A program made the translations under genes and the position numbers. The notes below the pieces were generated by a model that saw only the letters and a list, made by a program, of their open reading frames with translations, searched no databases and was not told the DNA's origin. Positions 2,291 to 11,533 of a DNA stretch of 35,976 bases are shown here, piece after piece. Positions within the stretch are counted from its first letter, which is position 1; each line of letters begins with the position of its first letter. The stretch is from Candidatus Aenigmatarchaeota archaeon (GTDB taxonomy: Archaea; Aenigmatarchaeota; Aenigmatarchaeia; GW2011-AR5): the NCBI GenBank assembly GCA_043803505.1, contig JAZDJX010000009.1, forward strand, positions 1-35,976, in the 5' to 3' direction.

Positions 2291-2350
2291 TTGTGACAGA
2301 ATGATTTAAGTTTCTTCATCACAATTAATTATCATGCCTCGTTAGCTCAG

Positions 2351-2433
2351 AAAGCCCCTTTTCTTTGTAAAGAAAAGTCCCTTGGGTTCAAAAGAAACAT
2401 GTGGCTTCGCAAAATATTAAGGAGCTTGAGAAA
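2351..2433 (+). other. tRNA intron 1 (about 83 nt, D-loop, non-canonical position about 15/16)
   Basis: Insert between AGCTCAG and TCGGTAGAGC. Internal hairpin CTTTTCTTT-GTA-AAGAAAAG and AAGCC/GGCTT pairing. Exact boundaries are ambiguous by 1-3 nt. Confidence 0.7.
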
Positions 2434-2456
2434 TCGGTAGAGCGTTACCTTGGTAA

Positions 2457-2545
2457 GACAATCTATGGAAGGGAAAGAAGGTAAATCGATTGACAACCAA
2501 AGATTGTCGGTCTATTTTGAGGAAAACCGTAGGTTGTCCTCAGGA
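2457..2545 (+). other. tRNA intron 2 (about 89 nt, at or next to canonical 37/38 site)
   Basis: Insert between the anticodon loop TTGGTA(A) and the 3' anticodon stem GGTAA. Internal helices GACAATCT/AGATTGTC and GACAACC/GGTTGTC. The boundary is ambiguous by 1 nt. Confidence 0.7.
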
Positions 2546-2631
2546 GGTAAAGGTCCCGAGTTCGACTCTCGGACGAGGCTTGCTTTTGTGCAAGTTAATA
2601 GGCTTATATATTTTACAGGCAATGACTTGAG

Positions 2632-10486: not shown

Positions 10487-11533
10487 CTAAATATCATTTT
10501 TTTCGCATTTCTGCTCTTTTTCCTCGTAATAAGGTGTCAAACAAAATCTGTAATTGCGCCCCCTTTTGAATGGTTTTATCAAATCAAGCTGGGATGTATC
10601 AAGCCTTTCAGCGTCTTCTTCTGTCAAATGACCCAAAAGAAACGAATCGCTGACCATCATTCCTAAACCAAATTCATCATTTATTTCTGTTACAATTTCT
10701 TCTTGAACAGGCCTATATTTACTATAAAGTTTACTAGGGCCTATGGTTTCAGAAATTTTTAAAGCCTGACAGAGAGATTCAGTATCTTTAAACCATTTGT
10801 TTCCGTAAAGAGAATGTATTGGTTCTCTGCTGAAAGCAAAACCACCAATTCTGAATCTGAAAACACCATACGATTTGCTGAAGGACATGACGACTGCAGG
10901 AATATTTTCATGACTTATATCGAATTTATGTTGCCTGGTTGCACCCACATATGCCAAATCCAAGATAACCTTGTTTCCAGCGTCACAAAGATCTGTTATG
11001 AATTCATTTGGTATGATATTTCCATCACATGAAGAAGGATTTGATATGAACCATACACCAGGCTCACATTTTTTTGAATTTGTTTTTCTAAAATCAAATT
11101 TTCTTACTCGTATTTTGAGGTCATCATGACCTGCATATTCTTCGTAACCCTCATATTCTCCATCAAAAACATTTATGGACTCAATATCTTCAATCTTAAG
11201 CTTTGTCAGAAGTTTAAAGATACCTTCGCTGGATCCTGATGTTGGATAACTGAACTTGAAATCTGAAAGGGCAGGAACAATAGATGAATATGCCTTGACT
11301 ATTCTCTTGATTATAGGGCCATGAATTTCATCGAGATCAACATATCCTTCTGGAGTGGCTGGAATATCCAGCGGTGGAGTAAAAAGTGGTTCTAATCTTT
11401 TGTAGATTTCTTCAGCAGGCGTTGTAACCAAATACATGCTATCGGGCAATGCATTTGAAACTTCTCGAAGCAAAGATCTTGTTTCAGGAAAAAAATAGCA
11501 ATAAACGGATTTCATGGCTTTCAATTTGCTCAT
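10487..11533 (-). CDS. PLP-dependent aminotransferase-fold protein (class I/II-like)
   Basis: SFSKSYGVFRFRIGG (SxSK Lys motif), ISNPSSCDGNIIP (compare NPxNPTG), VILDLAYVG. Start at ATG 11533, in ATGA overlap with the upstream radical SAM stop. Confidence 0.6.
   Translation of the reverse strand: MSKLKAMKSVYCYFFPETRSLLREVSNALPDSMYLVTTPAEEIYKRLEPLFTPPLDIPATPEGYVDLDEIHGPIIKRIVKAYSSIVPALSDFKFSYPTSGSSEGIFKLLTKLKIEDIESINVFDGEYEGYEEYAGHDDLKIRVRKFDFRKTNSKKCEPGVWFISNPSSCDGNIIPNEFITDLCDAGNKVILDLAYVGATRQHKFDISHENIPAVVMSFSKSYGVFRFRIGGFAFSREPIHSLYGNKWFKDTESLCQALKISETIGPSKLYSKYRPVQEEIVTEINDEFGLGMMVSDSFLLGHLTEEDAERLDTSQLDLIKPFKRGRNYRFCLTPYYEEKEQKCEKNDI

Follow-up and report, generated by a model that had tools for sequence, protein, structure and literature searches.

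Multi-intron transfer RNA (tRNA) genes with non-canonical bulge-helix-bulge (BHB) introns have been described in Thermoproteales (Crenarchaeota) (Sugahara et al. 2007, 2008; reviewed in PMC4090602). According to that review, transposed introns of Thermoproteales tRNAs are near-identical in different tRNAs and positions, and their similarity does not follow host orthology (Fujishima 2010 in PMC4090602). For DPANN archaea, splicing endonucleases (EndA) with specificity-broadening inserts have been reported, namely the epsilon2 EndA of ARMAN-2 (PMC3239211) and alpha4 EndAs with an L3 loop (PMC5829648), and DPANN lineages with many disrupted tRNAs were reported to carry insert-bearing alpha4 EndAs (PMC5829648). 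Both multi-intron archaeal tRNAs with non-canonical intron positions and disrupted tRNA genes in DPANN are known as a class. The stretch analyzed here, referred to as the window, is a contig of 35,976 nucleotides (JAZDJX010000009.1, contig C9) from the Candidatus Aenigmatarchaeota archaeon assembly GCA_043803505.1 (G000; 574 kb, 53 contigs, 65% complete), and the gene in question is a twice-interrupted tRNA-Thr(GGU) at positions 2336-2580 on the plus strand. Labels of the G0xx type denote related genomes, Cxx contigs, and Lxxx loci.

To reconstruct the mature tRNA, segments 2351-2433 and 2456-2544 were removed from 2336-2580. The remaining 73 nt (GCCTCGTTAGCTCAGTCGGTAGAGCGTTACCTTGGTAAGGTAAAGGTCCCGAGTTCGACTCTCGGACGAGGCT) were called tRNA-Thr(GGT) by ARAGORN and were folded by ViennaRNA into a cloverleaf of -29.2 kcal/mol. 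All stems (4/4) are fully Watson-Crick paired, the anticodon is GGU, and the product has U8, A14, G15/C48, G18G19, U33, A37, the T-loop UUCGACU, and the discriminator U73, with CCA not encoded. An earlier note on this DNA had described a flawless cloverleaf with paired stems, U33, A37, G18G19, and the T loop TTCGACT; every one of these features was seen. The observation of a twice-interrupted tRNA-Thr(GGU) is confirmed, with coordinates right within one base.

The gene consists of three exons and two inserts. Exon 1 (2336-2350) carries the acceptor 5' strand, U8 A9, the D-stem 5' strand, and A14 G15, and is a 100% BLAST match of the mature sequence. Exon 2 (2434-2455), supported by sequence, ARAGORN, and BLAST, carries the rest of the D-loop (UCGGUA), the D-stem 3' strand, G26, the anticodon stem 5' strand, and U32 U33 G34 G35 U36 A37. 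Exon 3 (2545-2580), identified from sequence and ARAGORN, comprises A38, the anticodon stem 3' strand, the variable loop AGGUC, the T arm, the acceptor 3' strand, and U73, and shares 97% identity with the 3' exons of the orthologues in G022, G007, and G005. Intron 1 (83 nt, 2351-2433) interrupts the D-loop at 15/16, and its boundaries stand as first proposed. Intron 2 (89 nt) had been placed at 2457-2545; A2456 and A2545 are identical and can stand for one another, so that 2456-2544 is the better notation, which puts the intron exactly at 37/38, the canonical position.

Our best explanation as a whole, which we hold to be highly likely, is a functional and probably the only Thr(GGU) gene of this genome, with a precursor of about 245 nt that would be matured by archaeal protein-only splicing. 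The gene is genuine and almost certainly functional, and both inserts are in all probability protein-spliced introns. The cloverleaf, the BHB motifs, and the orthologues described below support the core proposal of the earlier note, namely that this tRNA-Thr(GGU) is functional and that its two introns are of the BHB type, the first lying at a non-canonical position in the D-loop and the second at the canonical site.

The junction of intron 2 forms a near-canonical hBHBh' motif. Helix h pairs UUACC with GGUAA (5/5), the bulges are UA|A and GG|A, and helix H pairs U32U33G34G35 (UUGG) with CUCA at 3/4, comprising G-C, G.U, and U-A pairs and one U.C mismatch. Helix h' extends over 12 bp (GACAAUCUAUGG/CCGUAGGUUGUC), and the first eight pairs were all formed (8/8) in the BHB scoring. 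Cuts after the second bulge base on both sides leave A37 and A38, and ARAGORN with the intron option (-i) gave the same 37/38 position after intron 1 had been removed.

At intron 1, only a relaxed BHB was found, and it can be drawn in two registers. It was classed as a relaxed substrate because neither register is the predicted minimum-energy fold. In register A (2351-2433), H consists of C11-G, U12-A, and C13-G (2346-2348/2428-2430) plus G10.A (3/4), with A14G15|A and AA|U as bulges; AAGCCC/G(A)GCUU forms h' (5/6), and the product has an 8-nt D-loop (AGUCGGUA). Register B (2352-2432) has CUCA/UGAG as H (4/4), flanked by the bulges GA|A and AA|A, and leaves AGAAUCGGUA as the D-loop of the product. 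For the outer helix h, a permissive BHB screen gave a score of 3/4, without a clear helix. In a blind BHB-constrained search over all insert pairs, register A together with intron 2 ranked first and register B third, and the two registers tied in the number of junction pairs. The pairing of CTCA (2346-2349) with TGAG (2427-2430), which had been pointed out from the sequence, is correct; however, it belongs to the 10-nt D-loop register and not to the intron boundaries proposed along with it.

Register B describes the same gene and the same pathway with an intron of 81 nt and a 75-nt tRNA with a 10-nt D-loop. Its perfect CUCA/UGAG helix fits the architecture of most intron-family members in other genomes, [H5][NN|A][AGCYCC...GGRGCU][H3][AA|N], its 75-nt product was accepted by ARAGORN, and its constrained fold is marginally better (-63.8 vs -63.1 kcal/mol). 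This strict-BHB reading was favoured at first and was downgraded after the orthologue comparison. All intronless orthologues have an 8-nt D-loop, AGYYGGUA, and that of G036 is exactly AGTCGGTA. The sister intron in tRNA-Gln on contig C2 yields a normal AGUGGUCAA loop only if the cut follows G15. Four bases between G15 and G18, as register B would leave them, are also unusual in standard tRNA numbering. Register A appears preferable because all D-loop-intron orthologues admit an 8-nt register, as in the intronless genes, and because G016 and G005 have a perfect H there (GCUC/GGGC and GCUC/GAGC). We regard register B as possible and clearly the less probable of the two.

To compare the gene among relatives, the 245-nt gene was searched by BLAST against 60 related genomes with follow-up fetches. 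Thr(GGU) orthologues were obtained from more than 20 related genomes, with nearly invariant exons and zero to three introns; since the exons recur with varying inserts, the gene is not a chance arrangement. The gene is intronless (73 nt) in G049, G036, and G034. A single intron is present in the D-loop in G016 and G013, at 37/38 in G043 and G040, and at 29/30 in G004, G022, and G009. The 29/30 intron is accompanied by a variable-loop intron in G027, G032, and G031, the D-loop and 37/38 introns occur together in G025, G007, and G044, and three introns are found in G005, G003, and G028. G025 thus has the same layout as the gene studied here, and it belongs, like G027 and G035, to the same family as this genome.

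The D-loop site is occupied in the Thr(GGU) orthologues of at least 10 other genomes. The h' helices of these introns are unlike between genomes and yet always complementary (AAGCCC/GAGCUU, ACCAAU/AUUGGU, ACAAAU/GCUUGU, AGCUCC/GGAGCU). Across the intron family, members in other hosts included, the 4 nt before the 3' bulge track the host exon: GCUC is matched by GAGC or GGGC, GUAG by CUAC or CUAU, CUCA by UGAG or GGAG, and CCUG by CAGG. Such compensating changes in h' and the covariation of H with the host exon are what selection for BHB splicing would predict, and the latter lends support to the relaxed motif of intron 1. In a MAFFT alignment of 17 long-form family members the 3'-junction registers slipped, and junctions were scored with our own script and not with alifold.

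Intron 2 is a lineage-restricted canonical intron. Homologues were found in G025 and G044, and the 37/38 intron of G025 shows pair changes inside h'. A repeat-family origin of intron 2 was rejected: it has no family in this genome, and the recurrence is confined to a short motif at its 3' end, AAACC-R-YAGGUUGUCC, which two orthologues share and which is also seen close to the gene for RNase P RNA. A weak match to archaeal RNase P RNA was observed on contig C18 at about 10930-11300 (locus L189 435-712, minus strand), with 39.7 bits against a gathering score of 84. Within it lies GGGAAAACCACAAGGUUGUCCUUUGGAG, a sequence similar to the last part of intron 2 (GAGGAAAACCGUAGGUUGUCCUCAGGAG), and the gene for RNase P RNA may itself be interrupted.

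According to the proposed pathway, 2336-2580 would be transcribed as a precursor of about 245 nt. EndA would cut the near-canonical BHB at 37/38, releasing 2456-2544, and the relaxed D-loop junction at 15/16, releasing 2351-2433, with both sets of cut sites predicted from the motifs. The 3' end of intron 1 (GAGA/UGAG) would mimic the D-stem partner of exon GCUC(A). RtcB would join the three exons into the 73-nt tRNA, or into a 75-nt tRNA if the D-loop cut fell one base further in on each side, and the introns would probably be released as circles. The 245-nt precursor folds better than 200/200 shuffled sequences (z = -3.1).

Several findings weigh against this pathway. The BHB of intron 1 is weak, as the central helix of the favoured register has 3 bp plus G.A, and its BHB conformer is less stable by about 12 kcal/mol than the predicted minimum-energy fold, in which CUUGGGUUC pairs with GAGCUUGAG instead of forming the BHB. 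In the D-loop, either cut could be shifted by one base, giving an 8-nt or a 10-nt D-loop. The RtcB ligase is present (PF01139, E 1.4e-168, C6:2628-3959), but its frame carries a 30-nt stop-bearing insert, so that the ligase gene needs splicing or is damaged. Finally, EndA was not found in this 65%-complete assembly with PF01974 and tblastn.

The insert of rtcB (locus L066, about 1573-1602) is a 30-nt hairpin (TTTTGATTAAGATATTCTTTATCAAACCCA) with an in-frame TGA inside the conserved motif PDGHWG|YGFPIGGV, and removal of the 30 nt restores both the motif and the frame. The exon UGGG can pair with the insert 3' CCCA, and a strict BHB register would remove 32 nt. The insert could be an mRNA mini-intron or a hairpin-repeat insertion. 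Directly upstream of rtcB lies a 273-aa open reading frame (ORF) with the LAGLIDADG-like motif LCADGYV (C6, locus L066 531-1352), which may represent either a homing endonuclease or what is left of an intein.

The missing EndA is most likely an assembly gap, because the gene is present in 37/41 relatives and in 13/13 of those that are at least 90% complete, as a single gene of about 190-240 aa. The suggestion that the EndA type be checked thus found no gene in this assembly, and a single alpha4-like gene with a conserved insert in the relatives. The best solved relative of these proteins is the alpha4 enzyme of M. jannaschii (1a79, E 5e-34, full length). In 10/10 sampled EndAs of the relatives, the catalytic Tyr is separated from the catalytic His by a six-residue Lys-rich insert, LKKGPK; loops that broaden specificity in other lineages are placed at this site (PMC5829648). 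We infer that this insert may broaden EndA specificity.

The absence of EndA from the assembly, the structured introns, and the high conservation of intron 1 across families could also be read as removal by other means, for instance by self-cleaving ribozyme activity or as group I/II introns. At 83 and 89 nt, the inserts fall well below the size of group I or II introns, and no Rfam family, ribozymes included, matches the window. The BHB geometry of the junctions covaries with the host exon, and EndA is near-universal in the relatives. Removal without EndA is accordingly the least credible of the explanations considered, and EndA-dependent splicing of both introns remains our preferred reading.

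The tRNA set of the genome was collected by searching for a T-arm plus a 7-bp acceptor stem with inserts allowed. From 123 raw hits, 26 candidates with G+C-rich acceptor stems were kept manually. ARAGORN -i likewise recovered nine of the 26 and Rfam recovered five, and ARAGORN without the intron option found a single tRNA. Only one candidate is uninterrupted, a Gly-GCC of 71 nt (C23:820-890). About 25 of the 26 are interrupted, with lengths of 104-296 nt, and several have apparent T-loop inserts of 49-132 nt. Many identities remained ambiguous in the permissive BHB screen of these candidates, and its use was limited to counting interrupted genes and to the Thr gene itself. Contig C38 carries a tRNA-Thr(CGU), likewise with two introns (C38:327-461). 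Two long introns in one tRNA, which had been called unusual, are therefore not so in the gene's own genome, where many inserts are longer.

Default ARAGORN and Rfam at the gathering threshold reported no tRNA anywhere in the window. This failure is expected for such a gene and is no evidence against it; it agrees with the expectation that standard scans could miss the gene. ARAGORN with introns, run on the whole genome, placed the ends correctly at 2336-2580 and forced a single 174-nt intron with a wrong identity. This identity, Arg(CCT), was rejected, as was the Glu(TTC) obtained by ARAGORN when only intron 2 was removed; both need mispaired stems.

Inactivation of a tRNA-Thr by mobile repeats would be a different account of the same inserts. 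The inserts would then not be removed, and a functional copy would lie in the unassembled 35% of the genome. The assembly is indeed incomplete, the BHB of intron 1 is imperfect, and the intron-1 core also occurs outside tRNA genes like a dispersed repeat, namely after a zinc-ribbon ORF (C18:24050) and after tRNA 3' ends in relatives. However, the exons are without defect, and the inserts cannot mark pseudogenes because about 25 of the 26 tRNA candidates are interrupted and would need to be pseudogenes too. The D-loop site is also occupied in the orthologues, as described above, with junction helices kept complementary by compensating changes. A BLAST search with the mature sequence detected only the C9 exons, and no second Thr(GGU) copy, intact intronless gene, or intact Thr anticodon arm was found elsewhere in the 65%-complete 574-kb assembly. 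A pseudogene is thus very improbable, and a functional interrupted gene is the reading we retain.

A point absent from the earlier note is that intron 1 belongs to a dispersed, conserved intron family. In the BLAST search with the 245-nt gene, query positions 17-62 (up to about 100) matched 59/61 relatives, up to 15 times per genome. Within this genome, family members are the D-loop intron of tRNA-Gln(CUG) and a shorter relative in the T-loop of the same gene (C2), and a T-loop intron on C22. At C18:24046-24099 (minus strand), the 5' half of the family, consisting of the module described below without the closing 3' part, lies right after the stop of the zinc-ribbon ORF (...FFRCTKCKHVWREYK*), so that the module is not confined to introns and can be found where a gene ends. 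The 16S rRNA gene (C47:7108-7670; locus L187 1609-2171) has an insert of about 45 nt with a short-form module at C47:7581, which reads UUUUCUUU aaa AAAGAAAA ccuugg AAAAGAAAAG and lies between GCGCGAAACCUUCGCAA and GGGCGAAAGCCUGACG. This insert is likely an rRNA mini-intron of the intron-1 family. In the relatives, 16S rRNA (L013) likewise contains the family, and further copies directly follow the 3' ends of tRNAs.

The closest copy of intron 1, with 90% identity, lies in a CAU-anticodon tRNA of a genome from a different family (G039), and the orthologous Thr genes carry other variants of the family. Intron similarity thus does not follow host orthology. By these matches, intron 1 is classed as one copy of a dispersed family that is found throughout the order, at conserved D- and T-loop sites in many tRNAs and also within rRNA genes. 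The exact core pattern was found in genomes labelled Aenigmatarchaeota, Micrarchaeota, Pacearchaeota, Woesearchaeota, Nanoarchaeota, Altiarchaeota, and Iainarchaeum. No description of the family was found in the literature on Aenigmarchaeota tRNA or rRNA introns. The core pattern also matches bacterial genomes (Clostridia, Ruminococcus, C. difficile; loci L068, L071, L073, L088, and others), and these matches may be chance hits on a low-complexity pattern or terminator-like hairpins. No box motifs were seen by eye and no Rfam match was obtained in the introns, and a C/D-box or other known RNA within them was rejected.

The core of intron 1 is a module of a hairpin and a purine tract. The pyrimidine arm CTTTTCTTT (RNA CUUUUCUUU, 2358-2366), the loop GT, and the purine arm AAAGAAAAG (2369-2377) form a perfect 9-bp hairpin at 2358-2377, which is part of the predicted minimum-energy fold. 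After a 12-nt spacer (TCCCTTGGGTTC, 2378-2389) follows the purine tract AAAAGAAA (2390-2397). The tract is the mirror image of the purine arm and not a repeat of it, with the lengths of the A runs mirrored. To quantify this, arms were written as A(n1)GA(n2) and tails as A(m1)GA(m2), and a mirror was defined as m1 = n2 and m2 = n1. In 1.5 Mb, comprising this genome and the fetched loci, 73 of 92 asymmetric hairpins were exact mirrors and none had the direct order. Without the dominant class, which is partly selected by the search pattern, the mirror order was found in 29/41 and the direct order in 0, and 0/2000 permutations reached 29/41. Hairpins with one arm mismatch were divided, the tail following one arm in six cases, the other arm in seven, and neither in eight. 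Among the tRNA candidates, 13/26 carry at least one module in the sense orientation, and only two weak antisense matches were seen. Other module matches outside tRNA genes look like noise, save the copies on C18, C35, and C47.

Homopurine mirror symmetry beside a purine/pyrimidine duplex is the classical requirement of a triple helix. The module has the sequence signature of such a structure, that is, of an H-palindrome-type mirror repeat. A stronger proposal is that the module is no passive spacer but a functional triple-helix-forming element, in RNA or in transcribed DNA, which marks or drives the spread of pan-DPANN BHB introns into tRNA D- and T-loops and rRNA; we put it forward tentatively and consider it rather unlikely on present evidence. 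If it were true, the module could, for example, direct integration, make the excised circle more stable, or regulate transcription across the gene, and the Aenigmatarchaeota would be a living system for studying archaeal intron gain.

Several features flank or overlap the tRNA gene. A TATA-like box (ATTTAAGT) at 2304-2311 on the plus strand, about 28 nt upstream of tRNA position 1, may serve as the promoter, and A/T boxes such as TTTAAAT and TTTATAT lie 24-25 nt before position 1 in many tRNA candidates of this genome, Thr(GGU) included. Just 3' of the gene, a short T-run at 2583-2586 on the plus strand (GCTTTTG) is a possible archaeal termination signal. The ORF at 2450-2680 (76 aa, TTG start) runs from exon 2 through intron 2 and exon 3 into the spacer behind the gene, and its dismissal as an artefact of the tRNA gene was right. 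The next plausible gene after the tRNA starts at 2632. Neighbouring genes in the window are archaeal in kind (aIF5B, ribosomal protein S10, and MetRS). The earlier note had named Thermoproteales and a few other archaea as the main bearers of such tRNAs; the host here is an Aenigmatarchaeota (DPANN) archaeon and not a member of the Thermoproteales.

These results recover an essential tRNA that annotation pipelines had missed, and they indicate that the apparent tRNA deficit of the genome is due to introns. The Aenigmatarchaeota appear to rival or exceed the Thermoproteales in tRNA gene disruption. The occurrence of high disruption alongside an apparently simple alpha4-type EndA with a small insert bears on the co-evolution of EndA specificity and intron load. 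Thr(GGU) orthologues with zero to three introns, together with the intron variants at one site, provide a natural series in which intron gains, losses, and replacements could be dated. How archaeal introns of the protein-spliced kind move is an unsolved question, and the mirror-tract module gives it a concrete sequence to start from.

Compared with the multi-intron tRNAs of Thermoproteales, the present gene shares at least two protein-spliced introns, one canonical and the others in the D or T arms, a relaxed exon-intron BHB, and the failure of standard finders to detect it. It differs in its DPANN host, its longer introns (83 and 89 nt), and the interruption of about 25 of 26 genes. Thermoproteales have an (alpha-beta)2 EndA, whereas the relatives of this genome carry a single alpha-type gene. 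Like the transposed families of Fujishima 2010, as summarised in PMC4090602, copies of intron 1 occur in non-orthologous tRNAs and at different positions. Unlike those families, the intron-1 family is also found in 16S rRNA, in 3' trailers, and after protein genes, and it spans several DPANN phyla. Its conserved module of hairpin and mirror tract is likewise not known to have been described for Thermoproteales introns.

With the insert-bearing EndA systems of DPANN, this genome shares the small size, the many disrupted tRNA genes, and, in its relatives, an extra EndA loop. In contrast to the three-unit epsilon EndA of ARMAN-2, the EndA of the relatives is predicted to be a single alpha unit with the six-residue LKKGPK insert. 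The tRNA-Trp intron of Haloferax volcanii, a BHB intron of about 100 nt, encodes a C/D box small RNA. Intron 1 resembles it as a long BHB intron with a conserved RNA module that may function after excision, but it has no C/D boxes, and its module instead combines a pyrimidine/purine hairpin and a purine tract in mirror order. Three points go further than the known systems: the degree of interruption in this genome, the apparent reliance on a simple alpha-type EndA bearing a small conserved insert, and the membership of intron 1 in a pan-DPANN family of introns and trailers with a triple-helix-type module.

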